From: Bacilli bacterium
Lineage (GTDB): Bacteria > Bacillota_I > Bacilli_A > RF39 > UBA660
Direction: 5' to 3'
Length of the DNA stretch: 64,000 nt
Assembly (NCBI GenBank): GCA_017435255.1
Contig: JAFSFI010000001.1
Coordinates: forward strand, 40,055-104,054
Below, in pieces: positions 25,007-43,708 of this stretch. The notes below the pieces were generated by a model, which did no database searches, had not been told where the DNA came from, and worked only from the letters and a program-made list of their open reading frames with translations. Every line of letters begins with the position of its first letter. Position 1 is the stretch's first letter. The translations under genes were made by a program, and so were the position numbers.

Positions 25007-25951
25007 ATGAAAAACGAAATTATAATATTTGAAAATCAAAATGTAAAATTAGAAGTAAATATGAAGGATGAGACGGTGTGGTTGTCATTAGAACAAATAA
25101 GCACATTATTTGGAAGGGATAAATCAGTTATATCAAGACATTTAAAAAATGTGTTTAGTGAGGAAGAGTTAAATGAAACTGCAGTTGTTGCAAAATTTGC
25201 AACAACTGCTAATGATGGTAAAACATATAATGTTGAACATTACAATTTAGATGTTATTATATCTGTTGGTTATCGTGTTAAGTCTAAGAATGATATTTTA
25301 TTTAGAAAATGGTCTAATAAAGTATTAAAAGAGCATTTATTAAAAGGATATACAGTCAATGAAAAAAGATTAGAATTTTTAGAAAAGAAAGTAAAATTAA
25401 TTGATATAGCAACAAGAATTAATAAAGATTCTAACGATATTAAAGAAGTATTAGAGGTTATTAATAGCTTTTCGGAAGGATTAGATATACTAGATAATTA
25501 TGATCACAGAAGTTTTAAAAAGATAAAAGGAGCCTCATCAGATAAGAAAGTATCATATGATAATTGTTTAGAGATAATAAACCTACTAAAGTATAGTAGT
25601 GATTCTAATTTATTTGCGCTAGAAAGAAATAACGGATTAGAATCAATTATTAATAATATATATCAATCATTTGATGGAAAAGATGTATATGAAACTACTA
25701 TTGAGAAAGCTGCTAATTTTTTATATTTAATTGTAAAGAATCATGCGTTTATAGATGGGAATAAAAGAATTGCTGCAACACTATTTATTTACTTTTTACA
25801 TTTCTATAATATATTAACTATAGAAGGAAAAAATGTTATTGACAACAATACATTAGCAGCAATAACCCTTTTAATTGCAGAGTCTGATCCTAAAGAAAAA
25901 ATAATTATTATAGATTTAATACAAAATATGTTAGGGAATAGTTTGTCATAA
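25007..25951 (+). CDS. RhuM-like N-terminal domain + Fic/Doc domain protein
   Basis: ETVWLSLEQISTLF, YNLDVIISVGYRVKS (RhuM/Bro-like); HAFIDGNKRIA (Fic motif). Confidence 0.88.
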   Translation: MKNEIIIFENQNVKLEVNMKDETVWLSLEQISTLFGRDKSVISRHLKNVFSEEELNETAVVAKFATTANDGKTYNVEHYNLDVIISVGYRVKSKNDILFRKWSNKVLKEHLLKGYTVNEKRLEFLEKKVKLIDIATRINKDSNDIKEVLEVINSFSEGLDILDNYDHRSFKKIKGASSDKKVSYDNCLEIINLLKYSSDSNLFALERNNGLESIINNIYQSFDGKDVYETTIEKAANFLYLIVKNHAFIDGNKRIAATLFIYFLHFYNILTIEGKNVIDNNTLAAITLLIAESDPKEKIIIIDLIQNMLGNSLS

Positions 25952-26120: not shown

Positions 26121-28145
26121 ATGACTAAAAATTTAGTAATTGTAGAGTCTCCAAGTAAAAGTAAGACGATAGAAAAATATTTAGGTAAAGACTATAAAGT
26201 GGTATCTTCCAAAGGACATATTAGAGATTTAGCTACTACTGGTAAGTTTGGATTAGGAGTAGATGTTGATAATAATTTTGAACCTAATTATATTCCTATA
26301 GCAGGTAAGAAAAAAGTTATTAGTGAATTAAAAAAAGATATAAAAGAGAGTTCTAAAGTATATCTTGCAACCGACCCAGACCGTGAAGGGGAAGCTATAT
26401 CATGGCATTTAAAAGATGCATTAGGTATAAAAGATAAAGATTATGAAAGAGTATTATTTCATGAGATTACAAAAGATAAAGTTATAGAAGCTTTTAAAAG
26501 TCCAAGAAAAATAGATGATAATTTAGTACATAGTCAAGAAACTAGAAGAATATTAGATAGAATAATAGGATTTAGATTATCTAGATTAATGCAATCTAAA
26601 ACGGGAGGTAAAAGTGCAGGTCGTGTACAAAGTGTTGCACTTAAACTAATCGTTGATAGAGAACGTGAAATAGAAAACTTTATTAAAGAAGAATATTGGA
26701 CTATTACGGGAATATTTGACGAACTAGAAGCTGATTTATTTAATTATGATCATAAAGATATAGAAATAAAGTCAGAAAGTGAAGCTGATGAAATATTAAA
26801 CAAATTATCAAAAGAGTTTGTTGTAGAAAGTATCGAATCCAAAAAGAAAAATAAAAAGGCTAGACCTCCATTTATTACTAGTACATTACAACAAGAAGCA
26901 TCAACTAAATTAGGTTTTACCGCTAAAAAGACTATGTCTATAGCGCAAAAGTTATATGAAGGAATTGACTTAGAAAATGAAACAACAGGTCTTATTACTT
27001 ACATGAGAACGGATTCTATTCGCTTAAGTGATGAGTTTATAAAAAGTGGATATGCATATATTGATAAAACTTATGGTAAAGAATATGTTGGATATGTAAA
27101 GACAGCTAAGAAAAAAGATAATGTTCAAGATGCTCATGAAGCTATTAGACCTACAAGTATTAATAGAGAGCCACTAACAATTAAAAAGTATTTAACTAAT
27201 GACGAATATAAATTATATTCCCTTATATACTATAGAGCACTAGCAAGTCTTATGGCAGATGCTAAAGTAGATGCTACTACTATAATTCTTGATAATAATA
27301 ATTATCAATTTAAAGCTACTGGTCAAATATTAATATATGATGGATATTTAAAAGTATATAAAGATTATGAGAAAAGTGAAGATAGAGTTTTACCAGTGTT
27401 AAAAGAAAATGATATATTAATATCTAATTCTATAGAAAAAAATCAACACTTTACTGCGCCTCCATCAAGATATACTGAAGCTAAGTTAATTAAAGAGATG
27501 GAAGATTTAGGTATTGGTAGACCTTCTACTTATGCTAAAACTATGGATACAATTAAAGAACGAGAATATGTTGTTTTAGAAGATAAGAAGTTTAAACCTA
27601 CTGTTATTGGTATTGAAACTACTGATAAATTACAAGAATTCTTTAGTGATTTAATAAATGTAGAATACACTGCGGAAATGGAAGAAGACTTGGATAAAAT
27701 TGCAGAAGGAAATAAAGAATCATTAAATATATTAAGAGCATTTTATGATAAATTTGAACCAGAAGTAGAATCTGCTTTTAAAAATATGGAAAAGAAAAAA
27801 GCAGAGGAAACGGGAGAGATATGTCCTAATTGTGGTAATCCACTAGTAATTAGAAAAGGTAGATATGGAGAATTTACGGCATGTAGTAATTATCCAGAGT
27901 GTAAATATATAAAGAAAGAAGAAAAAGAAATAAAAGAAGTTTGCTCTTGTCCAAAATGTGGAGGAACAATTATAGAAAAAAATACTAGAAAAGGTAAAGT
28001 GTTCTACGGATGTAATAACTATCCAAAATGTAAAGTAGCACTTTGGGATATACCAACAGGTAATGTTTGCCCAGAATGTGGAGAGTTATTAATTAATAAA
28101 AATAACATAACAAAATGTAGTAGTTGTAAATATGAAGAAAAATAA
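26121..28145 (+). CDS. topA: DNA topoisomerase I
   Basis: LVIVESP, ATDPDREGEAI, SAGRVQS, ITYMRTDS, GIGRPSTY, C-terminal zinc ribbons. Confidence 0.98.
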   Translation: MTKNLVIVESPSKSKTIEKYLGKDYKVVSSKGHIRDLATTGKFGLGVDVDNNFEPNYIPIAGKKKVISELKKDIKESSKVYLATDPDREGEAISWHLKDALGIKDKDYERVLFHEITKDKVIEAFKSPRKIDDNLVHSQETRRILDRIIGFRLSRLMQSKTGGKSAGRVQSVALKLIVDREREIENFIKEEYWTITGIFDELEADLFNYDHKDIEIKSESEADEILNKLSKEFVVESIESKKKNKKARPPFITSTLQQEASTKLGFTAKKTMSIAQKLYEGIDLENETTGLITYMRTDSIRLSDEFIKSGYAYIDKTYGKEYVGYVKTAKKKDNVQDAHEAIRPTSINREPLTIKKYLTNDEYKLYSLIYYRALASLMADAKVDATTIILDNNNYQFKATGQILIYDGYLKVYKDYEKSEDRVLPVLKENDILISNSIEKNQHFTAPPSRYTEAKLIKEMEDLGIGRPSTYAKTMDTIKEREYVVLEDKKFKPTVIGIETTDKLQEFFSDLINVEYTAEMEEDLDKIAEGNKESLNILRAFYDKFEPEVESAFKNMEKKKAEETGEICPNCGNPLVIRKGRYGEFTACSNYPECKYIKKEEKEIKEVCSCPKCGGTIIEKNTRKGKVFYGCNNYPKCKVALWDIPTGNVCPECGELLINKNNITKCSSCKYEEK

Positions 28146-28193: not shown

Positions 28194-28646
28194 ATGATTA
28201 CTAGTGCAGAGATCTGTTCTAAAGAGGGAAATATAAAAATACCAAAAGAAGATATTGAAACTATGATTTATAATCAATACCTAAAAGATAATTTTGAACA
28301 CCAGGATTTTATTTATACGCATTATATTGATTATGAGTTTAGTACATACATTAGATTTGTTTATAGCGATAATTATTACGTTTTGTTCTGTGATGTTGAA
28401 CCTCAAAATAAATATGAAAGTGTAGCAAAATCAGTTATAAAAGAAAAAGATTATATTAAAATAAAAGCAAAAGCTTATTTTCAAACAGAAGAAAGTATTT
28501 ATAGCGATTACGGTTTAACAAACAAAATTTCAGATAATCCAAGTGAAGATATGTTGAATTATATATCTGACGCAAGCGAATATGAATATATATATATATT
28601 AGATAATAATAACTATAAGTTAGAAAAAATAATAAGAATTAATTAA
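28194..28646 (+). CDS. Hypothetical protein; N-terminally truncated paralog of 33769..34740
   Basis: Aligns by eye with the C-terminal ~150 aa of 33769..34740 (IPKEDIE..QDF / ITTEQLN..QNF; IYSD..TNKIS / IYGD..NNLLS). No anchor; in-frame stop at 28170. Confidence 0.6.
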   Translation: MITSAEICSKEGNIKIPKEDIETMIYNQYLKDNFEHQDFIYTHYIDYEFSTYIRFVYSDNYYVLFCDVEPQNKYESVAKSVIKEKDYIKIKAKAYFQTEESIYSDYGLTNKISDNPSEDMLNYISDASEYEYIYILDNNNYKLEKIIRIN

Positions 28647-28769
28647 AAGAACCATATTATATGAAAGAGTGTAAAGAGATTTGCACTTTTTGTGATTTTT
28701 AAATTTTATGTATTGAATGATTAAAGATTTACATGTATAATAAAGCTAGAATAGAAAGTAGGCGAGGAA

Positions 28770-30185
28770 ATGAAGAAGAAATTGCTTTTTTTATTTGTCT
28801 TTAGTACGATATTGTTTTTTGTGGATTCTGACGTTTTTGCTACTATGAACTATAAAAATACGGAATTACAATGTATTTATGGTAATGGTGTTCAAGTAAA
28901 TATGAAATATGATAGAACAATTAATTCAAAGACAGATTTAGACCATATATCTATTACTTTGGCTGATTATCCAACTAATTCCACTGTAATATATGGAGAC
29001 GAAATTACTAATCCAGGTTTATTTGATTGTGATGGTGGATGTGTTCCTCAAATGCAAAAAGAAAATTTTAATGATCTAAAAACTTTGAGATGCCCCAGTA
29101 ATATCAAATTATGGAATGCAGTTATATACGAAAGGCAAGCTGATAGTTCAGAGTGGATAAGCAAAACAAAGGGTGTATATGCGTTTAGATACACTTATTC
29201 TTTTTTGGCTTCTGATTTTGGTAGCTCTTTTAATTCTTATGTTACCGATTATTATAAGGGGACGGATGGAAATGGTAGATTTGATGGTTTTGGATACAAT
29301 TTGTGGTGGAAATGGTACTCAAACCTTAATAAAATGACTCACTTGACGCCCATAAATGCAACTAATATTGTTGATAAAGGCAATGCTTATAATAAAGGTT
29401 ATAACTGGATAGCTATTCCTTTGGTAGCAGAGCGATTATATATTGTGGAAGATATAGGAGATGATTCTTATTCTCCTGCATTTAGAGTATATAGGGGTGA
29501 CGCTAATAAAGATGGTAAAGAGGATGATGCTCAAGCAGTAGGGGCAAACAAGTATGCGCAATTATATAAGGGTGATGGTGGTTCCTATTACTTGCATCTT
29601 GGAGATGCAATAACATCATTATCTTCAGATGAGGCGGAATTATTTAATAACGAGTATATCTGTCTTAAAGAGTCTATTGCCAGTGAAAACGCTTCACGTG
29701 GTGATGGTAGCCAATCTTTTTCAAGTTCAAGACATATAGTAGAATCAAGCTCTGCTAAAGCTAACTGTGACGAGGGATTTACTAAATATGTTAGAACAAC
29801 AAAAATATGTAAACCTCAAGTAACACCTTCGGCCGGATCGTTTTGTGATAAATATCCAAATGTGGCTTTTGTTTTGATTGATATCATACAAGTGTTACAG
29901 GTTCTAATTCCAGCCTTGGTTATAGTGCTTACAGGAATAGAAATAGGTAGAATTGTTGTAGCAGGTAATATAGAAGAAGAATTGCCAAAAAGGAAACAAA
30001 GTATGATTATAAGAGGTATTGTCATGGTTTCGTTTTTCTTCTTACCATATATAACACAATTAATCATTTCTTTAGCTGAGGGTGTGTCTATATTAGAAGT
30101 TAACTGCTTATTTGGAATTTCAAAAGATCCAGGAGAGCTTTCTGAAGAAGATTGTGAAGAAGCGGTTAAAACTGAAGAGGAATAA
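28770..30185 (+). CDS. Secreted Cys-rich protein with C-terminal VirB2/TrbC-like pilin domain (copy 1)
   Basis: Signal peptide; variable ~330-aa head; C-terminal FCD..P, helix-loop-helix (IPALVIVLTGIEI..GNIEEELPKRK..IIR..FFFLP) and VNCLF. Confidence 0.7.
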   Translation: MKKKLLFLFVFSTILFFVDSDVFATMNYKNTELQCIYGNGVQVNMKYDRTINSKTDLDHISITLADYPTNSTVIYGDEITNPGLFDCDGGCVPQMQKENFNDLKTLRCPSNIKLWNAVIYERQADSSEWISKTKGVYAFRYTYSFLASDFGSSFNSYVTDYYKGTDGNGRFDGFGYNLWWKWYSNLNKMTHLTPINATNIVDKGNAYNKGYNWIAIPLVAERLYIVEDIGDDSYSPAFRVYRGDANKDGKEDDAQAVGANKYAQLYKGDGGSYYLHLGDAITSLSSDEAELFNNEYICLKESIASENASRGDGSQSFSSSRHIVESSSAKANCDEGFTKYVRTTKICKPQVTPSAGSFCDKYPNVAFVLIDIIQVLQVLIPALVIVLTGIEIGRIVVAGNIEEELPKRKQSMIIRGIVMVSFFFLPYITQLIISLAEGVSILEVNCLFGISKDPGELSEEDCEEAVKTEEE

Positions 30186-30213
30186 AAAAGCTTAAATAAG
30201 GAGAGTGATGTAG

Positions 30214-32442
30214 ATGCCAACAATAGATCTTCCTGCAATTGGGGGAATACTAGCCGATTTAGCATTAAGTATATTAACATATGCTGGTATAGCTGCCATT
30301 CTATATTCTATAGGTGGTATATTAATAAGGACTGTAAGTTGGACCTTTGATACGTTATTGGTTAGTTTTATTGGAAAATTTTACAGTTACTTTGAAACTA
30401 TTATAAATGGAACTTTATTAACCGACAAAGCTGTATCAGATATGATGAACAGAGTATATTTACTAGTAGGAGTTTTTGTAGTATTTAGGTTAGGAGTGTT
30501 ACTTATAAGCTATATAATAAATCCCAGCGAAGTAATGGATGAAAAAGTAGGAGTCAGTGCTCTTGTAAAACGAATTATAATAGGTCTTATACTGATAATA
30601 TTTATGCCTACTATATTTAAATATGCTTTTAGGTTACAGGATGCTATTTTGGACGATCAAGTTATAGAACGGGTTATAATGTCGGATGATGAAATGAAAA
30701 AAGCAGACGAATATAAAAAGAAACATGGTATGGGTAAAATTATAGGAATGACTGTTTTTCAGGGATTTTTCAGTTTATCAGAAAGCGCCAAGTCAAATGG
30801 CAGTGTAAAGAAAAATTATGAGAAGGCTACCGACATTGATAAAACATATGACTTGACAGTTATTAATTCTTTAGGAAGTGGACTAAATTCGGGGATACTT
30901 CATGAAGTTGGTGACGAGTATGCTCACGATTATTTTCCAATATTTTCTTGTGCGGTTCTAATATATGTTTTATATATGTTAGTTCAATATTGTCTAGATG
31001 CAGTTGTTAGAAGTTTAAAACTATCGGTATTACAAGTTATTGCGCCAATATGTATTGTAGAATATATGATCAACAATGATAGAAACGAGGTATTTAAAAG
31101 TTGGAGAAAGGCTGTAATTTCAACTTTTGCAATGCTACTTATGAGGGTAGCATCTATTTGGTTTGTAGCATATGTAACGATGCTAATGCAACCTGGAATG
31201 ATTGATAGTTCTAGTTTACTACAAACTAGTGATAACCTTTTAAAAGCTATAATAGTGCTTGGTTTATTAGCGTTTATGATGGATTTTCCAAAAATGATGT
31301 CTGATATTTTTGGTTTAGATTTAGATCAAAGTGGATCAGTAAAAGGTGTTCTTGGTAAAGCAATGGGAGTTGCTACTGCTGGTTTAGCGATAGGTGGCGC
31401 TGCTGCTGGTTTTGGACTTAAGGCTGCCGGCGGCTTAAAAAATACTGCAAAAGGAGGCATAAGTGCTTTAGCTAATAAATCCGCTGACAAATTTAAAAAC
31501 TTTGCTGACGCTAATGCTAAAAGAGCAGCTACGGCTAAGGCTAATGGTATGAGTCGTTTTGGTAATAGATTGCAAGACCTTTCCGATAAACAAGCGAAAA
31601 AAGCTGATAGAAGAGCTTCGTTTGCAGCTGGTCTTAATAACCCTGGTAAGACAGCTTTAGCACAGGCAGGGGCTTTAGGCGCATTTGGAATAGCTGGTGC
31701 TAACGCGCTTAGCCAAACTGCTAGAGAAGGTGGAAGTGTTAGAGCTAATTATAAGATGAATAGGTCGGCACTTGACAGAGCAGTTCAAAAAGCAGGAAGT
31801 GGTAAAGTTGGAAAAACTATGGCAGAACTTGGTGTAGAATTTGTTGCAAGCGCTAAAGCAAGCAATTTAGGAACTATCTTAAAATCTGGTGGATTAGCAA
31901 TGGGTGCAGCTGTATTAGCTTCTAATGCAGTAACTAAGTCTGCTCAAAGCGGATATCAACAAACTTCCGGTGCTGTTGATTCAAAAGTTTCCGGTAAAGA
32001 ACAAAAAGAAAGAGAACAAGCTTATCGAGAAAAAACAATCTCTGTTATGGAAAATATTGATGTTACTACACAAGCATCCTATGGTCAACAGACTGCGGCT
32101 AACCATAAATTAGATAGTATTGTTGATAATACAGAAGTTACAGCCACACAAACAGTTAATATTGATCAAAAGATAGGAAAAATTAGTGGGGATGTATCAT
32201 CTATATCTGATACAACAAATACAATATCACAAAACGTAAATACAGTTGTTGAACAAAATGCTACTATCAGTCATACTCTTAATCAAATAGAAGATAATAC
32301 ATTTCATACAGATGTAGAATCTGTTGAAAATAATGATACTATAGGTGGAGTAGCTGTTAGCGAGCCAGATTCTAACACAGGAGAAAGGACAACAAAATCA
32401 GGATTAATAATACCAGGAAGTATAGATGTTGATAATTATTAG
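30214..32442 (+). CDS. VirB6/TrbL-like polytopic membrane protein with Gly/Ala-rich and coiled-coil tail (copy 1)
   Basis: Multiple TMs; VRSLKLSVLQVIAPICI..VFKSWRK..FAMLLMRV; LLAFMMDFPKMMSDIFG; Gly/Ala-rich segment; polar heptad tail. Confidence 0.7.
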   Translation: MPTIDLPAIGGILADLALSILTYAGIAAILYSIGGILIRTVSWTFDTLLVSFIGKFYSYFETIINGTLLTDKAVSDMMNRVYLLVGVFVVFRLGVLLISYIINPSEVMDEKVGVSALVKRIIIGLILIIFMPTIFKYAFRLQDAILDDQVIERVIMSDDEMKKADEYKKKHGMGKIIGMTVFQGFFSLSESAKSNGSVKKNYEKATDIDKTYDLTVINSLGSGLNSGILHEVGDEYAHDYFPIFSCAVLIYVLYMLVQYCLDAVVRSLKLSVLQVIAPICIVEYMINNDRNEVFKSWRKAVISTFAMLLMRVASIWFVAYVTMLMQPGMIDSSSLLQTSDNLLKAIIVLGLLAFMMDFPKMMSDIFGLDLDQSGSVKGVLGKAMGVATAGLAIGGAAAGFGLKAAGGLKNTAKGGISALANKSADKFKNFADANAKRAATAKANGMSRFGNRLQDLSDKQAKKADRRASFAAGLNNPGKTALAQAGALGAFGIAGANALSQTAREGGSVRANYKMNRSALDRAVQKAGSGKVGKTMAELGVEFVASAKASNLGTILKSGGLAMGAAVLASNAVTKSAQSGYQQTSGAVDSKVSGKEQKEREQAYREKTISVMENIDVTTQASYGQQTAANHKLDSIVDNTEVTATQTVNIDQKIGKISGDVSSISDTTNTISQNVNTVVEQNATISHTLNQIEDNTFHTDVESVENNDTIGGVAVSEPDSNTGERTTKSGLIIPGSIDVDNY

Positions 32443-32453
32443 AGTATTAATAC

Positions 32454-32492
32454 AAAAAAGAAGAATTTACATTATATAATTCTTCTTTTTTT
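32454..32492 (+). terminator. Terminator after VirB6-like copy 1
   Basis: AAAAAAGAAGAATT-N10-AATTCTTCTTTTTT; same arms as 38266..38301. Confidence 0.85.
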
Positions 32493-32691
32493 ATGGATTA
32501 ATTAATGGGTGTATGATACCATAATTACGATCGATAATAGATGCTGACTCTAGATTTTATTAACTAATTAAAATTGATTGTGGTTTATATTTATATTGTC
32601 TTTGTAAGTGATAATTGACTATTAAAAACAAAAAAGCATATACATTGTTTTTTCTTATTTATATTGAATAATTTATTGTAAGTGTGATAAG

Positions 32692-33613
32692 ATGAAAGAA
32701 AGTGATAGTATGGAAGAACTTTTAATAGAAATAGAACAATTAAAATTATTGTTATCAAGTATAGATAAAATAGACAAGCCAATTGCTTCTTCTTCGAGCG
32801 AACAAGAAAAGTTTGAATTGGAAAATAAAAAACAGGAATGTTTATTGCAAATAGGAGAGTTAGGTTTGCAAAGAAAAATCAAAAATGGGGAAATAACAGA
32901 AGAGGTGATACAGGCTTCTGCAACTTTAGCCTCAAAACGAATGTTGTTAAAAAAGGAGCTGAAAAAGAAGAAAATAGATATAACCTATCTTCAGAATTTG
33001 TTGTTTCTAATAAAACAGATGAAAAAATTGGTATTAAATATATGAATATGTCTGAAAAGATAAGAACAATATACGAACATACTGGAGAAATAGTTTCATG
33101 CCAAGATCCAGTTGTTTTAAATTATAAAAACAATTCTTGTGCGGCTTTTGTTCAATATCTAGTATCTTCGAGGGTTAAAAATGAAATGATAAAAAGGTTG
33201 GGCCCTGATTGGAAACAAAAAATAGAACAATTATACATGCGAGGATATGATAATTATATTAACGGTTATATAGAAAATATAGTTGAATCAGTAGATAATA
33301 AATATAAAAAAATAATAATGCTCAGCGTGATACTACTGCAACACAGCCATTATCAAAAGAGGAAATACTTGTACATGAAAACAAAGGTTTAAGAAAAGCA
33401 CTAATAGTGGCGAATGAAGAAATAAATAGATTAAAAGTACAAAACAGGGAATTGCAAGCAGAAAATACAATATTAAGGTCTGATATTGTTAAAATGCAAC
33501 ATGAACATAAAGCGGATATGGAAAGTTTAAGAAATAATGTGGTTGCCATAAACAATCAACAAAGTGTAGGTTTAGAAGTAGATGCTCAAGGAGTTTATCA
33601 TTCAAAAAAATAA
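32692..33613 (+). pseudogene. Single ~307-aa orphan coiled-coil gene interrupted by two -1 frameshifts (ORF track shows three pieces)
   Basis: Codon usage switches frame near 32934-32955 (A4 run and A AAA AAG) and at the A7 run 33306-33312. Adding one A at each gives a continuous ORF ending GVYHSKK. Confidence 0.65.
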
Positions 33614-33768
33614 TACTTTCCTGTCAAATACTGAACTTTTACGAGGAATTATCAAATTCTTCTTTTTATATTGAAAAAAAACATATATATGATAAAATTA
33701 AAATAGATGATAGTAGAGGGTATTTTTTTGTGTTCTACTTAAAATTATTTAAGATAGTTGGTGATGAA

Positions 33769-34740
33769 ATGGGAAAAAAAGAAGAACAAACATTAAATGA
33801 AGTTAATGAGCAACATAACGAATTAAAATCTAGAATAGATTCTTTATATGGACTTAGTGATACACCTGTAAAGAAGCATACTGAATTATCGGAGGAAGAA
33901 AAACGACAAATTAGAAAAAAAATGGTCCTTTTAATTTGGTTTTGTATATTTATGGGGGGATTAATGATATTCAATACAATTTATCCAATAAATAATTTTT
34001 TTGAAAAAAAAGAAGTTGTTAAAGTGGAAGAACAAGAAAAATTACCTAGTTTACCATCGGGTGATGTCCCATTAGATAATGAAGAAATTCAAACAATGAT
34101 CGAAATGTTCAATTTTGATATAAATAATCCCTTATATGAAACAAACGTTGCTAAACTGTTTAATGGTAAGCAAGAAGTAGAAGATATGGATTTTGAATTA
34201 CAAATGTTTTTATTAACATCTAATGATAAATTTAATAAATATATAGCAGAAAAAACAACAATTGATGATTATTATACCAATGAAAATGACGTAGAGGTCT
34301 CTATTACTACTGAACAATTGAATAGTATTGTTAAAGAAATTTTTGGTGAGGAAATAGCAATTGATTATCAAAATTTTAAATATTATTATAACTATGGTGA
34401 AGATAATATTGTTTATTTTGATGCTATGTTAGATGAGTCAGCCGGCATCTATACATTTACACCTATAGAGCAGCCTATAAAAACAAAAACAGAGATGCAT
34501 TTAGAGGTTTTTTCTGCTAACAATTTAGCTGATACTATATATATAAACTATTATGTTATATATACAAACGAAAAAGGTATTTATGGTGATGCTATGACAA
34601 ATAATCTTTTAAGTAATGATACAACCAAAATAAATGATATCATTACATATGGTGCGAGAGTGGAAATGATGTTTAAAAGAGTAGTAGAACAAAAAAATAA
34701 TTTAATAAAATATTATTTAATATCTACTAATCGATACTAG
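33769..34740 (+). CDS. Membrane-anchored hypothetical protein, first gene of module copy 2
   Basis: RBS GGTGA before ATG 33769; cytoplasmic N-terminus, one TM, ectodomain; 12 nt from the pilin-like gene. Confidence 0.8.
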   Translation: MGKKEEQTLNEVNEQHNELKSRIDSLYGLSDTPVKKHTELSEEEKRQIRKKMVLLIWFCIFMGGLMIFNTIYPINNFFEKKEVVKVEEQEKLPSLPSGDVPLDNEEIQTMIEMFNFDINNPLYETNVAKLFNGKQEVEDMDFELQMFLLTSNDKFNKYIAEKTTIDDYYTNENDVEVSITTEQLNSIVKEIFGEEIAIDYQNFKYYYNYGEDNIVYFDAMLDESAGIYTFTPIEQPIKTKTEMHLEVFSANNLADTIYINYYVIYTNEKGIYGDAMTNNLLSNDTTKINDIITYGARVEMMFKRVVEQKNNLIKYYLISTNRY

Positions 34741-34752
34741 GAGGAAAATATT

Positions 34753-36039
34753 ATGAAAAAATATGCAATTCTAATTTTAACAGTACTAATTTGTTTATCG
34801 TTTGATGTGGTGACTGCTGAAGAAGGAACACTAAAACCAGAAGAAATATTAGTAACGTGTGTTTATGAAAATGGTTTTCAATTAGAAGCATTTTATTCAG
34901 AGGGTGCATATGGTATATTTGGTAGTTCAATTAAAGTTAGCAACATGATTGAGGCTCCTACAGCTAGTGGTATTAAAATATTTTATAATGAGGGCAATTA
35001 TGCAAAAAAAATTGTTGATTCTGCACAATGCCCGGACAAGCTTAATGGTGGAATAATGATTCAGGGGGCTGAGGATGTGGAGACAACGGCTACAGCAAGT
35101 CTATATTTTCATGCTGATGATAAAAGTAAGGTTAGTTGCGGAGTAACGACCGGTTGGGCAAATGGATTGCAATATTGCAGTGATAATAGCTCTGATTTCG
35201 ATCATAATTTTTTTAATAAGACAAAAATTAGCCAAGGATTTGAGCCTAAATACGGTTATTGGTACACGAATACCGTTCAAGTGGGCTCAGCGTTAGAGAA
35301 AAAGTGTATTTCTGGTGGTAGTGGCTGGTGTAACTTTTTTTCGTTTAATTTGTTAAATGAACGTGTTGAAATTGCTACTGAAACAAAGCCATTAGGGCAA
35401 TGGGCATTTAAGAGTGAAGGTGATCAGGCCGCAAGTAAGGCAATGTATGCAAGGTTATATAAATATAAATTACCTAATGGTGATAATAGGTTTTTTATTG
35501 AAAAGGATAATATTATGACCAGTGTGCCGACGATAAAGGAAGAACCTGATAAAACAGGAACAAAAACAAATTGGTTATGTTTAAAAGCTTCGTCAAAAAG
35601 TATAAATGAATCAAGTTTTTATTATTCTGAAATTAGGCACAGAGGTGGAATTGGCAGTGGTCCTGTTGGCAAAACTCCTACTTGTAAACAAGATTCGTTT
35701 ACCTTATATAAAGAGGTTGATTGGGATGAAGCGGCAGCAACCGGGGGAACTATGACTTCTATTTGTGATATCATACCAGAGACTTCATTAATTTTGGCCG
35801 AATTTACACAGTGGGCTAGAATAATTGTTCCAGCGTTTTTAATCATTTTAACCGGCTTTGATATATCTAAAATTGTAATAAACGGAAATTTAGAAGAAGA
35901 ATTACCAAAGAGAAGAAAACATATAATAATTAGGGCTGTAATAGCATTGATTTTCTTCTTCTTACCATTATTTGTTCAAGCTATTATAGGAGCAACTCAG
36001 GGTGTAGATTTTGGTGATGTTTCATGCATTTGGAATTAG
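34753..36039 (+). CDS. Secreted Cys-rich protein with C-terminal VirB2/TrbC-like pilin domain (copy 2)
   Basis: Paralog of 28770..30185: CVYENG, QCP, YARLYK, CLKAS, ICDIIP, GNLEEELPKRRK..IIR..FFFLP, VSCIW. Confidence 0.7.
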   Translation: MKKYAILILTVLICLSFDVVTAEEGTLKPEEILVTCVYENGFQLEAFYSEGAYGIFGSSIKVSNMIEAPTASGIKIFYNEGNYAKKIVDSAQCPDKLNGGIMIQGAEDVETTATASLYFHADDKSKVSCGVTTGWANGLQYCSDNSSDFDHNFFNKTKISQGFEPKYGYWYTNTVQVGSALEKKCISGGSGWCNFFSFNLLNERVEIATETKPLGQWAFKSEGDQAASKAMYARLYKYKLPNGDNRFFIEKDNIMTSVPTIKEEPDKTGTKTNWLCLKASSKSINESSFYYSEIRHRGGIGSGPVGKTPTCKQDSFTLYKEVDWDEAAATGGTMTSICDIIPETSLILAEFTQWARIIVPAFLIILTGFDISKIVINGNLEEELPKRRKHIIIRAVIALIFFFLPLFVQAIIGATQGVDFGDVSCIWN

Positions 36040-36056
36040 AGAGAAGGTGACTATTG

Positions 36057-38261
36057 ATGTTATTTATGTTTCCTGTTATTGACCTTACTACTATTGGGAC
36101 AATAATTGAACTGGTTATTCAAATAGGACAAACAGCTGTAGAAATAGGCATCTTGCACTATTTGGTTTTTGAAAAAGGATGGCTTGACTTGATTCGTTTA
36201 ATATCGTTTTGGCTAGACACCCTTGTAATTAAATATATTGATAAATTTTATTCCTATTTTGATAAAATTTTGAATGGTAAAATTTTTGCACCAGATGTTA
36301 TAGAACGCGTTATGAATAGCGTGTATTTGTTCGTATCTGTAATAGTATTATTTAAGTTAATAATGTTATTAATCAAATATGTTGCTAACCCAGAAATGGT
36401 GTCTGATGAAAAAGGTGGCGGTGGAGCCTTAGTAAAAAGAATAGTAATAGGAATGAGCTTAATGCTCTTTCTTAACACCATTTTTGATTATGGATATAAA
36501 TTACAATCGGCTATTTTAAATGATAATATATTTGGTAAGGTTTTACTTACAAAAGGACAACTAAGTTCTTATGAAAAAAACAAAGATCAAATGGGGAGAT
36601 TATTGGGTTTTAATATTTATCAAGCATTTTGGAATCTTGATACAAATCAGATTACCAAAAAATCTATAATTAATAGATATAATAATGCGATTAGTATAAA
36701 GGATCCAACCGCTTTTGGTGATATCAATGAAAAATATGGAAATGATTACGCAATCGATTATTTTCCTATTTTATCTACTGTAATGTTATTTTATGTATTA
36801 TATTTGATAATAAAATATTGTATAGACATAGTCGTCCGAATGTTTAAATTATTTGTGTTACAAATGTTAGGGCCAATTGCCATAGCAGACTATATGGTAG
36901 ATGGTGATAAAGAGGGAATGTTTAAAGCTTGGACTAAAACCACGATTGCGGCATATGCAATGTTATTTATGAGAGTATTTTGTATATGGTTTGTAGCTTT
37001 TATAACAACCCTTATGAATCAAAAGTGTACGAAGACTGTAAATGGTGTTTGTACGGATAGTTTATTGTATATTACGACGGATTCTGCTGGGAATGCCACC
37101 CCTGACTATTTATTAAGAGCCTTGATTACGTTAGGCCTTTTAGCTTTCTTAATGGATTTACCTAAATTATTATCTGAATTGTTTGGGCTTGATTTAGAAC
37201 AAGATGCATCTGTTAAAGGATTGATGGGGAAAGTCGGTGGAGCTGCAAAAATGGTTGGAATGGGAGCTCTTGCTGCGGGTGGAGCTGCTGTAGGTGGAGC
37301 TCTTGGTAGTATGAAAGCTGGGACTAGTGCGTTGAAACAGTTCGGTCAAAATAAAGCTCAAACTAAGGCAAAATTAGCTAAATTAGATCCTAGCGATCCT
37401 AATTACGCACAAAAATCAAAGGCTATAAAACAACAGTCTAGATTACATAACGCGACATTAGCGTCTAATACTCTTGGTACTGCAGGAGGTTTTGCTTCAG
37501 GTGTTATGGCTGCAGCGTTATCTTCAACCCCTCTTAATAGTGCTGTTGGAAGCTCTAGCAATGCATCTAGTTCTGTTCAAAACAGATCTAATGAGTATGG
37601 CAACAACACTGCTGTTGCATTAAAAGTTAAAGAAGATAAGTTGGCAGATATTAAGTCAGAAGAGGAAAAAGCAAAAGCAGAAAAAGCGGAAGCTGATACT
37701 GCTCAATATCGTCAACATCAAATGGCAACATCCGCAGCTTCTTATGGACAACAAGTGGCAACTAATAAACGATTGAGTCAAATTTCAGAAAATACAGAAG
37801 TTACTGCAACTCAAACAGTTAATATGAATCAACAATTAGGAACAGTAAGTGGAAATATTGAAGCAATCGCGCAAAATACGGAAACAACCGCGCAACAAAT
37901 TGTAAATGTAGATCAAAAATTAGGAACAGTAAGTGGAAATATTGAAGCAATCGCGCAAAATACGGAAACAACCGCGCAACAAATTGTAAATGTAGATCAA
38001 AAATTAGGAAAGATTGACGATAATGTTGGTCAAATTAAAACTAATACTAATATGATTGCGGAAGACACAATTCAACAAACAATCAACGTGGAACAACAGC
38101 TAGGTGAAATTAGTAGTAATGTTGGAAAGGTTGCAGCTAACACGGATATGATAGCAGAAGACACAATTCAACAAACACTTAATGTTGAACAGTTAGTTGA
38201 AACAACAACTGGTGGTGAGGTACCTTCTACAAATGATAATAAATCTATATTAGATGAATAA
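36057..38261 (+). CDS. VirB6/TrbL-like membrane protein with expanded repeat tail (copy 2)
   Basis: Paralog of 30214..32442: VRMFKLFVLQMLGPIAI..MFKAWTK..YAMLFMRV; LLAFLMDLPKLLSELFG; shared ASYGQQ..NTEVTATQTVN. Confidence 0.7.
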   Translation: MLFMFPVIDLTTIGTIIELVIQIGQTAVEIGILHYLVFEKGWLDLIRLISFWLDTLVIKYIDKFYSYFDKILNGKIFAPDVIERVMNSVYLFVSVIVLFKLIMLLIKYVANPEMVSDEKGGGGALVKRIVIGMSLMLFLNTIFDYGYKLQSAILNDNIFGKVLLTKGQLSSYEKNKDQMGRLLGFNIYQAFWNLDTNQITKKSIINRYNNAISIKDPTAFGDINEKYGNDYAIDYFPILSTVMLFYVLYLIIKYCIDIVVRMFKLFVLQMLGPIAIADYMVDGDKEGMFKAWTKTTIAAYAMLFMRVFCIWFVAFITTLMNQKCTKTVNGVCTDSLLYITTDSAGNATPDYLLRALITLGLLAFLMDLPKLLSELFGLDLEQDASVKGLMGKVGGAAKMVGMGALAAGGAAVGGALGSMKAGTSALKQFGQNKAQTKAKLAKLDPSDPNYAQKSKAIKQQSRLHNATLASNTLGTAGGFASGVMAAALSSTPLNSAVGSSSNASSSVQNRSNEYGNNTAVALKVKEDKLADIKSEEEKAKAEKAEADTAQYRQHQMATSAASYGQQVATNKRLSQISENTEVTATQTVNMNQQLGTVSGNIEAIAQNTETTAQQIVNVDQKLGTVSGNIEAIAQNTETTAQQIVNVDQKLGKIDDNVGQIKTNTNMIAEDTIQQTINVEQQLGEISSNVGKVAANTDMIAEDTIQQTLNVEQLVETTTGGEVPSTNDNKSILDE
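37834..38010 (+). repeat. Exact 84-bp coding tandem repeat (2.1 copies), followed by degenerate 96-bp units to ~38192
   Basis: AATTAGGAA starts at 37834, 37918 and 38002; encodes LGTVSGNIEAIAQNTETTAQQIVNVDQK twice. MIAEDTIQQT recurs at 38052 and 38148. Confidence 0.95.
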
Positions 38262-38336: not shown

Positions 38337-40949
38337 ATGAAAAAAGTAATATTGATAGATGGTAATAATATTTTATTTAGGAGTTATTATGCTACTGCAT
38401 ATACAGGAACAATTATGAGAAATTCTAAAGGATTTCCTACTAATGCTTTATATGGTTTTATTAATATGATAAATAAAATTATTAATGAAGAACGCCCTTC
38501 ATATGTTATGATTGCGTTTGATAAAGGTAAAACATTTAGACATGATAAATATGAAGTATATAAAGATGGTAGACGTGAGACACCAAGTGAATTAAAGGAA
38601 CAGTTTCCTGTTGCTAAAAGATTAGTAGAAGCTATGGGAATTGCTTGCTATGAAATTGATAATTATGAAGCCGATGATATTATTGGTACTTTTGCTAGAT
38701 GTGTCGATGAAGATAAAGAATATACTGCTACTATTATTAGTAGTGATAAAGATTTATTACAATTAATTAGTGATGAAGTAGATGTTAAGTTATTAAAACA
38801 AACAGGGTTCATTCGCATGGATAGAAATGAATTTATTAATACATATGGTGTTGAACCAGCAAGAATGGTAGATTTAAAAGCATTAATGGGGGATGCTTCT
38901 GATAATATTCCTGGAGTAAAAGGTATAGGGGAAAAGACTGCGATTAACCTATTAAAAGAATATGGAACTTTAGAAAATTTATATAATAATATTGATAGTG
39001 TTAAAGGTAAAATGAAAGAAAAGTTAATTGATGATAAAGAAAATGCTTTTATGAGTTATGATCTTGCAACAATTTATAAAGAAGTACCTATTGATACTGA
39101 TTTTGAAAAAATTAAATATAGGGGAATAGATGCTTTAAAATATATTGAAATATTAGAAGAATTAGAGTTTTATTCTTTATTAAAAAAAGTAAATATAGAT
39201 AAAGATCTAATGCGAGAAAATGAGACAAATGATATAGAGTATACTATTGTAGACGATTTAAGTAATTTAAATATTACTTCCAATTATTCAATATATTTAG
39301 AAACTCTTGGCTACAATTATCATAAAGATGCTCCTATAGGATTAGGTATATATGATGGAGAGAAAGCTTATTATGTTCCTTTTTCTGTATTAGAAAAATG
39401 TCCTAATTTTTTAGAAAGTTCTTTTGAAAAATATACATATGATGTAAAGAAATTAATAGTAGTATTAGATAGATATGGAATAAAGATTAATAACTTATGT
39501 TATGATGCTATGATAGCAGGTTACTTATTAAATCTTAATGTAAAAGATGATATTGGATATTTAATGAATAATAAAGGTTATAAAGTAGATTTTTATTTAG
39601 ATTATTTTGGTAATCCTAATAAATTAAAGATGCCTGACGATGATTTATATATAAGTAATATTATTAAGAAGGCCAAGTTCTTATATGAATCTAGGGAAGA
39701 GTTATTAGATAGTTTAAAAAAAGAAGAGTCATACGAATTATATAATAATATTGAACTTCCTTTAGCGTTTGTTCTTGCTGATATGGAATTAACAGGTATT
39801 AAAATTGATCAAGAATTCTTACGTGATATGGGAAAAGAATTAGATACTAAAATAGAGATGTTAGAAGATACTATTCATGAATATGCTGGAAAAGAATTTA
39901 ATATTTCGTCTCCTAAACAATTAGCGGAAGTTTTATTTATAGATTTAGGAATTCCTTATCCTAAAAGAACTAAAGATAATAGTTATTCTACTAGTAAAGA
40001 AATATTAGATAAAATAGTAAATATTCATCCAATAATACCTGCAATTATGGAATATAGGTTGTTATCTAAATTAAATGGGAATTATGTAATTGGTTTATTA
40101 AATGAAGTCCATGATGACGGTAAAATACACACCATGTTTAATCAAACTTTAACTAGAACAGGAAGACTATCATCATCTAATCCTAATTTACAAAATTTAC
40201 CAATTCGTCAAGAATATGGTAAGTGTCTAAGAAAAGCCTTTATTCCAGAGGAAAATAGTCTTTTATTATCATCTGACTATTCACAAATAGAACTTAGAAT
40301 TTTTGCGCATATGGCTAATGCTAAGAATTTAATAGAGGCATTTAAAGAAGGAAAAGACATACATACTAAAACAGCTAGTGATATATTTGGTGTAAGTGAA
40401 GATATGGTCACTAAAGAAATGCGTCATCAAGCTAAAGCGGTTAATTTTGGCATATTATATGGTATTAGTAGTTTTGGTTTAGGAGAAGACTTAAATATTG
40501 ATTATATAACTGCTAAGAACTTTATTACCAATTATTTAAATAGTTATCCAGAAATTAAGCTGTATATGGATAATATTATTAAAGAAGCATATGAAAAAGG
40601 ATTTGTTAAAACTATTATGAATAGAAAAAGAACAATTGAAGAATTAAGTAGTAAAAACTATATGATTAGAACTAGTGGTGAAAGAATAGCACTTAATACT
40701 CCAATTCAAGGTAGCAGTGCTGATATTTTGAAAAAAGCGATGGTTGAAATATATGATGAGTTCAAAAAAAGGAATTTGAAAAGTAAAATGTTAATTCAAG
40801 TACACGATGAACTTGTTATTAACACATTAGAAGAAGAAATAGAAGAAGTTGAGGGTATTGTTAAAAATATTATGGAAAATACATATAAATTAGAGGTTCC
40901 TTTAAAGGTAGAAATAAGTACAGGAAATAATTTATATGATGCAAAGTAG
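38337..40949 (+). CDS. polA: DNA polymerase I
   Basis: 5'-3' exonuclease (LIDGN, EADDIIG, GDASDNIPGVKGIG); pol A motifs (TGRLSS..PNLQN, DYSQIELR, KAVNFGILYG, QVHDEL). Confidence 0.98.
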   Translation: MKKVILIDGNNILFRSYYATAYTGTIMRNSKGFPTNALYGFINMINKIINEERPSYVMIAFDKGKTFRHDKYEVYKDGRRETPSELKEQFPVAKRLVEAMGIACYEIDNYEADDIIGTFARCVDEDKEYTATIISSDKDLLQLISDEVDVKLLKQTGFIRMDRNEFINTYGVEPARMVDLKALMGDASDNIPGVKGIGEKTAINLLKEYGTLENLYNNIDSVKGKMKEKLIDDKENAFMSYDLATIYKEVPIDTDFEKIKYRGIDALKYIEILEELEFYSLLKKVNIDKDLMRENETNDIEYTIVDDLSNLNITSNYSIYLETLGYNYHKDAPIGLGIYDGEKAYYVPFSVLEKCPNFLESSFEKYTYDVKKLIVVLDRYGIKINNLCYDAMIAGYLLNLNVKDDIGYLMNNKGYKVDFYLDYFGNPNKLKMPDDDLYISNIIKKAKFLYESREELLDSLKKEESYELYNNIELPLAFVLADMELTGIKIDQEFLRDMGKELDTKIEMLEDTIHEYAGKEFNISSPKQLAEVLFIDLGIPYPKRTKDNSYSTSKEILDKIVNIHPIIPAIMEYRLLSKLNGNYVIGLLNEVHDDGKIHTMFNQTLTRTGRLSSSNPNLQNLPIRQEYGKCLRKAFIPEENSLLLSSDYSQIELRIFAHMANAKNLIEAFKEGKDIHTKTASDIFGVSEDMVTKEMRHQAKAVNFGILYGISSFGLGEDLNIDYITAKNFITNYLNSYPEIKLYMDNIIKEAYEKGFVKTIMNRKRTIEELSSKNYMIRTSGERIALNTPIQGSSADILKKAMVEIYDEFKKRNLKSKMLIQVHDELVINTLEEEIEEVEGIVKNIMENTYKLEVPLKVEISTGNNLYDAK

Positions 40950-41790: not shown

Positions 41791-42363
41791 TTATGAATAA
41801 AGACTCTTCATTTTTTGTGTTTGATATGAACCAAAGTCACTAATCGTCGTAAGCATTTGGTTTACTTCATTATATCCTATATTCCATGATTTATTTATTG
41901 CTAAATGATGGTTAGGCATTCCCATACTATCTATGTAAGTAGAAATTAAAGCAGTTCGAATATCTGGATCGTTTTTAATTTTGCTTTCTACTGTATCAAA
42001 GTATTCTTCTTTTAAAAGAACAGTAAACATATCTAAGTATTGTGAATTTTGAGAAGTTAGATAATATCTTTTTAATAAAATAAAATCTAATTTTCTTTCT
42101 GAAATTATTCCATTTGTAAACATACAACAAAACATATTGTAATCTCTAGCATAAGCAATCACATTATCTCTACCAAAGTTATTAACTAAATAATTCATTT
42201 TATCTAAAAAGTATTTTTCGTGTTGTGTATCCATTGACATAAGTACTAAATCTTCGTTATTTTGCGTAGCCATTATTGCACCCCCTTTTTTAAGCGCTTC
42301 TAAAGTATAATATTTTTCTTTAGTTTTGTCAACTAATAAAAAAGAATGAATAGTTTTATTCAT
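41791..42363 (-). CDS. Hypothetical protein (orphan), coupled to the murD2 end
   Basis: 190 aa; start overlaps the murD2 stop by 8 nt. Confidence 0.7.
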   Translation of the reverse strand: MNKTIHSFLLVDKTKEKYYTLEALKKGGAIMATQNNEDLVLMSMDTQHEKYFLDKMNYLVNNFGRDNVIAYARDYNMFCCMFTNGIISERKLDFILLKRYYLTSQNSQYLDMFTVLLKEEYFDTVESKIKNDPDIRTALISTYIDSMGMPNHHLAINKSWNIGYNEVNQMLTTISDFGSYQTQKMKSLYS

Positions 42364-43708
42364 TCTTAACTAACTTTTTAAATACTTCGCCTTTTTCTTG
42401 AAAGTTTTTAAAATATTCATAACTAGCTGCCGCGGGGGACAACAAACATATTTGTCCACTTCTAGTTACCTCTTTAGCTTTTTCTACAGCTTCTTCTAAA
42501 GTATCTACTATGTAGATATTTTTGTTTGCTGTTTTTAATTTTTTTGCAATAGTATGTCCTGTAGTAGGCATACATATTAAGTTTTCTATATTAGAGTTTT
42601 TTAAATACTTTATGAAATAATTATAATTAATACCTCTATCTAATCCACCAAAAATAAGTGTATTGACTTTTTCTAATGAATTGATTGCATTTATAGTTGC
42701 TTCAGGGATAGTTGCAATAACGTCATTATAATAGGTAATATCATTAAAAGTTCCAACTAATTCAAGTCTATGTTCTAATGGCTTAAAGTTATTAATCGCA
42801 TCAATTGTATTTTGATTATTTAGTCCTAAGATATTACTTACTGTTAATACTAACATAATATTAATAATGTTGTGATTACCAATTAAGTTTCTTTTATTAG
42901 TTAAATCGTATACTTTTTCACCGTTAATATAAATGAAATGATTATCACAGTAAGTATGTAAGTTTTGATTATTAAAATCTACAGTTAGTATTTTGGTGTT
43001 AGTGTTAGTAGAACTAATATATTTGTTAATAGTATTACAACCTTCAAAATATATTAAATAATCATTTTCATCTTGATATCTAGTTATATTAAGTTTTGAC
43101 TGATAATAAGCATCTATTCCATTTGTATGATCTAGATGATCTTGATAGAAATTAGTAATTATTGATATTCTTGGAGAATAGTTAATAAATTCTAGTTGAT
43201 GAGAAGACATTTCTACAACTAGTAATGTATCTTTTCGAATTTGATCTATAAAGTCAAAAATAGGAGTTCCAATATTTCCTAATAAAAAACAATCTTTATT
43301 ATTATTTTTTAAAATATCATACATAAGTGATGATGTTGTACTTTTACCTTTAGTACCCGTAACTCCTATAATGTTATTTTTAAAATATTTTATTAGAAAC
43401 TCTAACTGAGAAAAGATTTTGTGTTCTATGTTTTTGATATTAATATCTTTAAAAGATATACCAGGAGTTTTCATAATGATATCATACTGTTCTAAGTTAT
43501 CCAGATAATCATCACCTGTAATAAAAGTGATATTTTTATCTTTTGATAATACTGGATCACATTTTATTTCGCCATTATTATCTCTTATAGTAATAGTAAT
43601 ATCTTTAAAATATTTTCTTAAGAATATATATGTTGATCTTCCTTCTTTACCAAAACCTAAAATAACTATATTTTTATTTTTAAATTCATTTATTAATTGT
43701 TCTAACAA
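42356..43708 (-). CDS. murD: UDP-MurNAc-L-Ala:glutamate ligase, probably L-Glu-specific MurD2
   Basis: LGFGKEGRS, KTPGIS, VTGTKGKSTT, GNIG.P, EMSSHQL, HRLE, YNDVIATIPEAT, LLSPAAASY; abuts murL. Confidence 0.9.
   Translation of the reverse strand: MLEQLINEFKNKNIVILGFGKEGRSTYIFLRKYFKDITITIRDNNGEIKCDPVLSKDKNITFITGDDYLDNLEQYDIIMKTPGISFKDINIKNIEHKIFSQLEFLIKYFKNNIIGVTGTKGKSTTSSLMYDILKNNNKDCFLLGNIGTPIFDFIDQIRKDTLLVVEMSSHQLEFINYSPRISIITNFYQDHLDHTNGIDAYYQSKLNITRYQDENDYLIYFEGCNTINKYISSTNTNTKILTVDFNNQNLHTYCDNHFIYINGEKVYDLTNKRNLIGNHNIINIMLVLTVSNILGLNNQNTIDAINNFKPLEHRLELVGTFNDITYYNDVIATIPEATINAINSLEKVNTLIFGGLDRGINYNYFIKYLKNSNIENLICMPTTGHTIAKKLKTANKNIYIVDTLEEAVEKAKEVTRSGQICLLSPAAASYEYFKNFQEKGEVFKKLVKNE

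Follow-up and report, generated by a model that had tools for sequence, protein, structure and literature searches.

Pilins of the VirB2/TrbC type in type IV secretion systems (T4SSs) are small proteins of about 50-150 amino acids without an extra domain. The locus described here raises the question of what such a pilin hairpin is doing at the end of two much larger proteins, which we call A1 and A2 and which are 471 and 428 amino acids long. Both are encoded between topA and polA in a 64,000-nucleotide stretch (hereafter the window; G+C content 27%) of contig JAFSFI010000001.1 from a Bacilli bacterium, whose metagenome-assembled genome (MAG) of ~1.0 Mb is in 15 contigs and 88% complete. Each A gene is directly followed by a paralogue of the T4SS channel gene virB6 (A1 by B1, A2 by B2). 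A1 and A2, each a headed minor or tip pilin with a matched VirB6, are probably interchangeable target-recognition modules of a domesticated T4SS, a function that we infer from their homologies and setting. The four genes on which this reading turns are as follows.

28770..30185, plus strand: A1, headed pilin-like protein of 471 amino acids; signal peptide at about residues 1-24, head at about 25-345, VirB2-like hairpin at about 346-450, then an acidic tail
30214..32442, plus strand: B1, VirB6-like polytopic membrane protein of 742 amino acids, recognised by NCBIfam models, BLASTP and hydropathy
34753..36039, plus strand: A2, headed pilin-like protein of 428 amino acids; signal peptide at residues 1-22, beta-rich head from 23 to about 330, linker 331-335 of low confidence, helices 342-377 and 380-416, with Cys338 and Cys425 flanking the hairpin
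36054..38261, plus strand: B2, VirB6-like paralogue of 735 amino acids with a hypervariable, repeat-bearing C-terminal extension

The C-Terminal Hairpin Resembles T4SS Pilins

A profile made from the last ~95 residues of the A family was searched against the 3,944 open reading frames (ORFs) of the genome. It matches only four of them: A1, A2 and two small proteins encoded on another contig (C1), of 106 amino acids (E = 1.8e-13) and 137 amino acids (E = 3.6e-13); the next ORF scores E = 0.89. The small C1 proteins match the Pfam families PF18895 (T4SS_pilin, 7e-5) and PF04956 (TrbC/VirB2, 1.4e-3), and PF18895 also matches 13 of 20 family hairpins at E<=0.01, the best at 4.7e-12. A generic membrane anchor, the alternative that was raised together with the pilin assignment in a preliminary description of this DNA, is ruled out by the finding of only four such proteins in the genome. 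These comparisons indicate that the C-terminal domain is, specifically, a VirB2-type (PF18895-like) T4SS pilin hairpin. No match to A2 or to the 106-amino-acid small pilin was found by tblastn in 72,556 plasmids.

The architecture of A1 and A2 follows that of VirB2-type pilins except in size. Hydropathy profiles show a signal peptide, a hydrophilic stretch of ~320-340 amino acids, and a C-terminal pair of hydrophobic helices round a short charged loop, and AlphaFold2 gives the two helices of A2 listed above; the two-helix, cysteine-bracketed hydrophobic domain of the preliminary description is thereby borne out. The loop, GN(I/L)EEELPKR(R/K)K, is conserved among A-type hairpins. The first hairpin-flanking cysteine is invariant in an alignment of 20 hairpins that includes both small pilins, and the C-terminal one is present in most, so that the cysteine bracket looks like a trait of the pilin family. 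The two cysteines are predicted to form a disulfide staple that would join the two extracellular ends of the hairpin, which we take to be functionally reminiscent of the head-to-tail cyclised TrbC/VirB2 pilins.

The Heads Are Divergent Homologues with a Beta-Rich Fold

The preliminary description listed seven ordered anchors in A1 and A2, and all seven were found in both translations: CxYxNG (C35-IYGNG in A1, C36-VYENG in A2), RCP/QCP (at C108 and C93), ER (LVAER and LLNER), YAxLYK (YAQLYK and YARLYK), CLKxS (CLKES and CLKAS), SxxRH (SSSRH and SEIRH) and CD..P (CDKYP and CDIIP). Six residues (C36, Y38, C93, E203, C338 and C425 in A2 numbering) never vary in an alignment of 25 family sequences, and conservation reaches 90% or more at G41, P94, Q225, A226, Y232, Y238 and C311. 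A BLASTP alignment between A1 and A2 covers only the final ~210 residues (32% identity, E = 7e-28), and the sequence between the anchors had been called unrelated. This needs correction: a head-only profile built without A1 gives the A1 head 39.3 bits, whereas none of 200 shuffles exceeds 7.2 bits. Because the A1 head scores so far above the shuffled sequences, the heads of A1 and A2 are divergent homologues. Across the family, the mean pairwise identity is 30% for the head and 58% for the C-terminal domain.

A2 is the sole head that was modelled, the A1 head being covered through its homology to the A2 head. The AlphaFold2 model of A2, computed on the family alignment, has a mean predicted local distance difference test (pLDDT) score of 81.7 and a predicted template modelling score of 0.72. 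It comprises a beta-rich head (residues ~30-322, with many blocks above 90) and the helical hairpin. In a Foldseek search of the model against PDB and BFVD, as the preliminary description had proposed, no match fell below E = 1e-3 and template modelling scores did not exceed 0.15; the A2 head can therefore not be assigned to an adhesin, lectin or enzyme fold. Neither head matches a family in Pfam, NCBIfam or PHROGs. Together these searches speak against the possibility that the heads are conserved enzymes, and the lack of PHROG matches excludes a phage origin. A VirB5-type tip adhesin in fold or family was likewise rejected, there being no Pfam match, a beta-rich A2 head and no Foldseek match. 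The A2 head, which carries invariant cysteines, is thus predicted to adopt a beta-rich fold for which no relative can be recognised.

Each Headed Pilin Is Paired with a VirB6 Paralogue

B1 and B2 both match VirB6-like models built for integrative and conjugative elements (ICEs) of mycoplasmas: B1 matches NF045848 (E = 1.8e-11) and NF045889 (E = 2.7e-9), and B2 matches NF045848 (E = 2.6e-10), the NF045848 matches of both falling below the curated cut-off. BLASTP connects both proteins with the VirB6 of the T4SS on contig C1 (E = 1.6e-28 for B1 and 2e-21 for B2), which itself passes PF19597 (TrbL_4) at 27.9 bits against a cut-off of 27, and connects them with each other (E = 1e-99; 42% identity across the first ~400 residues). 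The polytopic character of VirB6/TrbL proteins is seen in both, with 6-7 transmembrane segments by hydropathy. The C-terminal halves of the B proteins are long, Gly/Ala-rich and coiled-coil-like; in B1, ~7 transmembrane segments in residues 1-360 are followed by such an extension of 380 amino acids, and B2 bears a tandem repeat at 37828-38047 with an 84-bp (28-amino-acid) unit in 2.2-2.6 copies of 98% identity (Tandem Repeats Finder).

The A1-B1 and A2-B2 adjacency recurs in the core operon and in sister genera. In the core T4SS cluster, the gene of the 137-amino-acid pilin lies immediately 5' of virB6, and this identical pilin-then-VirB6 order indicates that the A-B pairs arose by duplication of a pilin-VirB6 unit. 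The intergenic gaps are 28 nt between A1 and B1, 12 nt between the 336-amino-acid ORF and A2, and 14 nt between A2 and B2; such short gaps suggest that the island consists of two operons. The span 28770-36039, to which attention had been drawn, also holds B1, a broken gene and the gene of a single-pass membrane protein; the VirB6-like gene that comes after each A gene is not mentioned in the preliminary description. The remaining features of the island and its edges are as follows.

26121-28145, plus strand: topA, upstream edge of the island
28194..28646, plus strand: remnant ORF of 150 amino acids, probably a truncated gene; tblastn and BLASTP matches to proteins of three related loci (L010, L008 and L013), E = 4e-32 to 1e-12
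28713..28741, plus strand: promoter-like, sigma-70-like match TTGAAT-17-TATAAT just 5' of A1, a pattern match from a consensus scan only
32692..33613, plus strand: three overlapping ORFs of 117, 184 and 68 amino acids, with a tblastn match for the 184-amino-acid frame only
33671..33698, plus strand: promoter-like match TTGAAA-16-TAAAAT with extended TG, 5' of the 323/336-amino-acid gene, from a consensus scan only
33730..34740, plus strand: single-pass membrane protein of 336 amino acids (GTG start) or 323 amino acids (ATG at 33769), supported by orthologues and AlphaFold2
38337-40949, plus strand: polA, downstream edge of the island

The 323-amino-acid protein has a charged N-terminal tail, a single N-terminal transmembrane segment by hydropathy (residues 53-71, 323-amino-acid numbering) and an outer alpha/beta domain of ~250 amino acids. 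Its AlphaFold2 model has a pLDDT of 81.2, and its gene is kept directly 5' of A2-type genes (orthologues in the loci L007, L014 and L015). The Foldseek matches of the model are weak (TraM of pIP501, E = 0.16; a Rickettsia VirB8-like protein, E = 0.30; a designed NTF2, E = 0.19, probability 0.95), and the protein is possibly VirB8-like in its modelled fold. The ORF at 28194-28646 covers only the C-terminal half (residues ~179-332) of single-pass proteins of ~310-343 amino acids that lie beside the A-B pairs of relatives, and this family is distantly related to the 323-amino-acid protein of 33769-34740 (BLASTP, 1e-4). The 184-amino-acid ORF within 32692-33613 matches residues ~86-208 of coiled-coil proteins of 305-567 amino acids that are intact in relatives; compared by eye, the 117- and 68-amino-acid ORFs resemble the N- and C-terminal parts of these proteins, and a 364-amino-acid gene after B2 in the closest relative (L015:13418-14512) looks, also by eye only, like an intact counterpart. 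The segment could be a frameshifted pseudogene or an assembly error of the MAG.

Outside the island, the gene just 5' of topA (window 25007-25951) has a counterpart of 93% identity at L015:2046-2978 with the Pfam domains Fic and Virulence_RhuM. In the close relative, the counterparts of window 42356-45070 (minus strand) have the Pfam domains MurL_N/MurL_epimerase_C and Mur-ligase, forming a MurL-MurD-like pair.

A Core T4SS Is Conserved across the Order

The two small pilins are encoded in a complete T4SS cluster of the Gram-positive type at C1:56774-68625. It comprises VirD4 (T4SS-DNA_transf, 6e-60), VirB4 (AAA_10/TraG P-loop/CagE), a TcpE/PrgI-like VirB3, the TrbL_4 VirB6 and a wall hydrolase with M23 and lysozyme domains. 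A Tad-like module with a T2SSE ATPase and RcpC adjoins it, the joint locus extending over C1:56774-78631. Beside this locus, C1:78753-79178 encodes a thioredoxin-fold lipoprotein (lipobox LLTGC, CSHC motif, Pfam Thioredoxin at 1.6e-6), a candidate extracytoplasmic disulfide oxidoreductase, and several secreted proteins of the Tad/T4SS locus are Cys-rich.

The genome has one VirB4. VirB4 was found in 142 of the 151 genomes of the order (81 of 86 genera). Each has one copy with 64-95% identity to the query; a second, distant VirB4 (27-34%) occurs in a minority. A scan of 19 proteins encoded in the core cluster and next to it, which left aside the smaller ORFs there and the rest of the genome, recognised no relaxase or integrase domain, and the ORFs on either side of the island likewise include no recognised integrase or relaxase. 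Because VirB4 is nearly universal in the order and no relaxase is seen beside the T4SS, the T4SS is therefore a domesticated core machine of which headed pilins are a regular part in the lineage. Genes for an ATPase, VirB3 or a hydrolase are missing from the island, which lies on a separate contig from the core T4SS and is a satellite with extra headed-pilin-VirB6 modules. A conjugative or mobile element, or an ICE remnant, is ruled out by the conserved topA-polA synteny and by the core distribution of VirB4.

Distribution and Evolution of the Headed Pilins

We read ten related loci, eight from MAGs and two from metagenome contigs (L015 and L016) that carry the closest A2 homologue; the relatives' loci come from MAGs of uncultured gut Bacilli of goat, rabbit and human. 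One or two A-B pairs are present between topA and polA in nine of the ten loci (seven of the eight MAG loci and both metagenome contigs), and the accessory genes and the number of modules differ among relatives. In the eight MAG loci, identity to the window is 75-87% for topA, 67-84% for polA, 28-52% for B and 24-40% for A. For the closest relative, L015, simple pairwise Nei-Gojobori estimates of nonsynonymous (dN) and synonymous (dS) divergence, with amino acid identities, are as follows.

topA: identity 97%, dN 0.012, dS 0.32
polA: identity 91%, dN 0.048, dS 0.49
A2 hairpin: identity 91%, dN 0.037, dS 0.86
A2 head: identity 55%, dN 0.40, dS 1.22
B2 residues 1-400: identity 87%, dN 0.078, dS 1.17
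B2 after residue 400: identity 29%, dN 0.86, dS 1.34

The A2 head thus has a dN/dS of ~0.33 and the hairpin one of about 0.04, the five flanking genes compared ranging from 0.04 to 0.14, and the VirB6-like N-terminal halves of B1 and B2 are 87-91% identical to those of the close relative. The head variability expected from the preliminary description therefore holds for A2, whose head is the fast-evolving part in the comparison with the closest relative, but not for A1. It is also evident that dS to the closest relative is about two to three times higher in the island (0.85-1.23) than in the flanks (0.27-0.57). Such an excess suggests, as far as sequence divergence can tell, old alleles, allele exchange or recombination at the island.

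A profile search of 1.84 billion representative proteins returned 95 proteins at E<1e-30 (A-type) and 1,494 at E<1e-3. Among 163 proteins found with the hairpin profile, 146 carry at least 150 residues ahead of the hairpin, in a sample biased to long proteins by the query, and the head of ~43 of those headed proteins is not recognised by the A-type head profile. Pilin-domain matches occur in 108 of the 151 genomes of the order (63 of 86 genera), which is almost wholly one family; A-type heads are restricted to a few genera, and all eight genomes listed with them also carry the conserved VirB4. In three sister genera, the core T4SS operon itself has three to six pilin-domain genes 5' of VirB6-VirB3-x-VirB4, of which two to four per array encode headed proteins (290-426 amino acids). 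In one such array (L017, G108:C11:4000-19000), six consecutive pilin-domain genes directly 5' of VirB6-VirB3-x-VirB4 encode proteins of 139, 426, 395, 155, 298 and 412 amino acids, so that small and headed forms are mixed.

A Proposed Mechanism and Its Alternatives

The mechanism that we propose starts from what is observed, namely the homologies, the gene order, the chromosomal position, the contrast of rates within A2 and the core status of the T4SS; the export and topology, the disulfide staple, the docking on VirB6, the use of the core ATPases and the tip or surface display are our reconstruction. An exported, Cys-scaffolded, beta-rich head of ~310 amino acids would have been added ahead of a VirB2/PF18895-type two-helix hairpin, and the resulting A protein would be co-transcribed with its own VirB6-type channel paralogue, A2 also with the single-pass membrane partner encoded 5' of it. 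The signal peptide would export the head across the membrane, and the hairpin would be inserted with its charged loop in the cytoplasm, so that the head and the short C-terminal tail would remain outside; there, the two invariant cysteines that flank the hairpin could staple its outer ends together. The hairpin may then dock on its cognate VirB6 paralogue, as small VirB2-like proteins have been modelled on VirB6 pentamers. The island lacks its own ATPase, and we propose that the A-B unit connects to the one core T4SS, that of contig C1, with its VirB4, VirD4, VirB3-like protein, wall hydrolase and two small pilins. The heads would be exposed at the cell surface, or would form the distal, first-loaded layer of a short pilus, and would determine the cell or surface engaged by the machine; two divergent modules, together with the fast-evolving A2 head and B tails, could provide alternative or changing specificities. 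Of the adhesin-like minor or tip pilin suggested in the preliminary description, the T4SS pilin homology of the C terminus and the non-enzymatic nature of the heads thus stand, and the adhesin role would follow from topology, context and evolutionary rate.

Several findings weigh against this proposal. With a 35-kDa head on each subunit, a VirB2-type filament would be crowded, which makes a homopolymer doubtful; it is for this reason that a minor or first-loaded (tip) role is favoured. A2 scores 15.6 bits against PF18895 over its full length and 19.3 bits with the hairpin alone, below the cut-off of 26.6, and A1 has no direct PF18895 match. Searched against PDB sequences, the hairpin profile finds no solved VirB2 pilin and only chance matches to helices of G protein-coupled receptors (E>=0.16). 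The A2 head's dN/dS is raised but below 1, short of demonstrating positive selection, and the A1 head (83% identical to that of L015) is no more diverged than the A1 hairpin (82%). Disulfide formation in a gut anaerobe is an assumption.

Could the A and B proteins instead form a self-contained surface organelle, a VirB6-derived platform with a hairpin-anchored adhesin or receptor that needs neither the core ATPases nor a pilus? This would account for the location of the island on another contig than the core T4SS and for its lack of ATPase, VirB3 and hydrolase genes; the A-type loop is unlike that of the small pilins, which fits functional divergence, and the B proteins have long extra C-terminal regions. 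However, headed pilins of the sister genera lie within the core T4SS operon beside VirB6 and VirB4, the conserved VirB4 is present in every listed genome with A-type heads, and the VirB6 fold is known only within T4SS channels. We therefore regard such an organelle as unlikely.

Still less probable is a defensive or discriminatory role, in which the variable heads would act as self/non-self, exclusion or decoy factors against related T4SSs or pilus phages. The raised dS of the island, where dN is raised too, would be expected under balancing or frequency-dependent selection or allele exchange, and the varying module number and accessory genes among relatives also fit. Yet searches of Pfam, NCBIfam and PHROGs, which did not extend to PADLOC, brought up no likeness to known exclusion or defence proteins; the exclusion factors that are known are small, either inner-membrane proteins or lipoproteins; and a pilin-VirB6 pair, as the unit from which the machine is assembled, is no obvious blocker. 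The truncated gene at 28194-28646 and the apparently frameshifted one at 32692-33613 might also suggest that the pairs are non-functional remains of an old duplication or of an integrated element. This is very improbable given that both A and both B ORFs are intact, that the A-B pairs are syntenic across genera, that the low dN/dS of the hairpin and the conserved VirB6 N-terminal halves show purifying selection, and that the ORFs flanking the island include no recognised integrase or relaxase. Target-recognition modules of the core T4SS thus remain the reading that we prefer.

Comparison with Known Systems

The VirB2-like proteins of Gram-positive T4SSs are described as hairpins of 50-150 amino acids whose genes lie close to virB6 and which have been modelled on VirB6 pentamers; a VirB5-like tip was not found in these systems (bioRxiv 10.64898/2025.12.18.695078). 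They share with A1 and A2, as in PrgF of pCF10 and its positional analogues, the two-transmembrane hairpin, the short charged loop and the virB6 neighbour, but they are headless and encoded on plasmids with relaxases; here, the hairpin carries a head of ~310 amino acids, the genes lie on the chromosome, no relaxase was seen next to the T4SS, and every headed pilin has a VirB6 paralogue of its own. Among plasmid VirB4s, the closest come from conjugative plasmids of Bacillus thuringiensis (30% identity). In these plasmids, a small hairpin, TrbL, PrgI, x, VirB4 and hydrolase are collinear with the core locus, the order pilin-VirB6-VirB3-x-VirB4-hydrolase matching in pBMB68; the plasmids differ in carrying a relaxase, and no significant sequence similarity was found to the 126-amino-acid positional analogue in pBMB68.

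Patescibacteria have arrays of divergent small PF18895/PF04956 pilins and chromosomal T4SSs mostly without a relaxase (PMC12102498; PMC12857230). The Pfam family, the reduced genomes, the mostly relaxase-less chromosomal T4SS and the several highly divergent pilin paralogues are all points of likeness, and the variation has been suggested to fit the machine to different partners (PMC12102498; PMC12857230). The difference is that their pilins are small and in tandem, large heads being unmentioned in the accessible text of the two papers, whereas in the Bacillota studied here the pilin domain has a head fused to it and has been duplicated, along with VirB6, at a satellite locus.

In the Trw system of Bartonella, trwL (VirB2) is amplified, trwJ-trwI-trwH (VirB5-VirB6-VirB7) are co-amplified, and the variants set host-specific adhesion (PMC2883598). 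Here too, a surface-exposed, fast-diverging pilus component is co-duplicated with VirB6, and the T4SS serves as an adhesion device in Trw as we propose for A1 and A2. In contrast, Trw belongs to diderm Proteobacteria, its adhesin VirB5 is separate and not fused to VirB2, its tandem duplications lie inside the operon, and it is without a coupling protein, unlike our host genome, which has VirD4. The VirB5 tip adhesins themselves, such as TraC of pKM101 and TrwJ, match the proposed role of the heads, a distal, target-binding cap placed on VirB6 before the pilus grows; they share no sequence or fold similarity with A1 or A2, the A2 head being beta-rich, and attachment here would use a VirB2-type hairpin. 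The themes of these systems are combined here in a new layout, in which a VirB2 hairpin bears a fused head and the two are duplicated, along with VirB6, at a satellite site on a Bacillota chromosome; headed VirB2-type pilins are not described in the accessible parts of the sources above (bioRxiv 10.64898/2025.12.18.695078; PMC12102498; PMC12857230; PMC2883598).

Implications

The VirB2-like pilins of Gram-positive T4SSs were recognised only in December 2025, as small headless proteins. A large class of hairpins with fast-evolving heads and VirB6 platforms is a candidate for the means by which single-membrane T4SSs choose their targets. One may go further, in a tentative and rather doubtful extension, and regard the headed pilin as the missing tip-adhesin equivalent of these systems, with a VirB5-like function built on a VirB2 hairpin. 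The A-B pairs would then act as targeting cassettes that can be swapped on a domesticated T4SS which occurs across the family and lacks a relaxase, and these gut Bacilli of 0.7-1.6 Mb would live in obligatory contact with partner cells, as a second, independent case of the Patescibacteria style. More directly, the T4SS belongs to the conserved core gene set of an abundant, uncultured lineage of small-genome gut Bacilli, and this conservation suggests a contact-dependent way of life.

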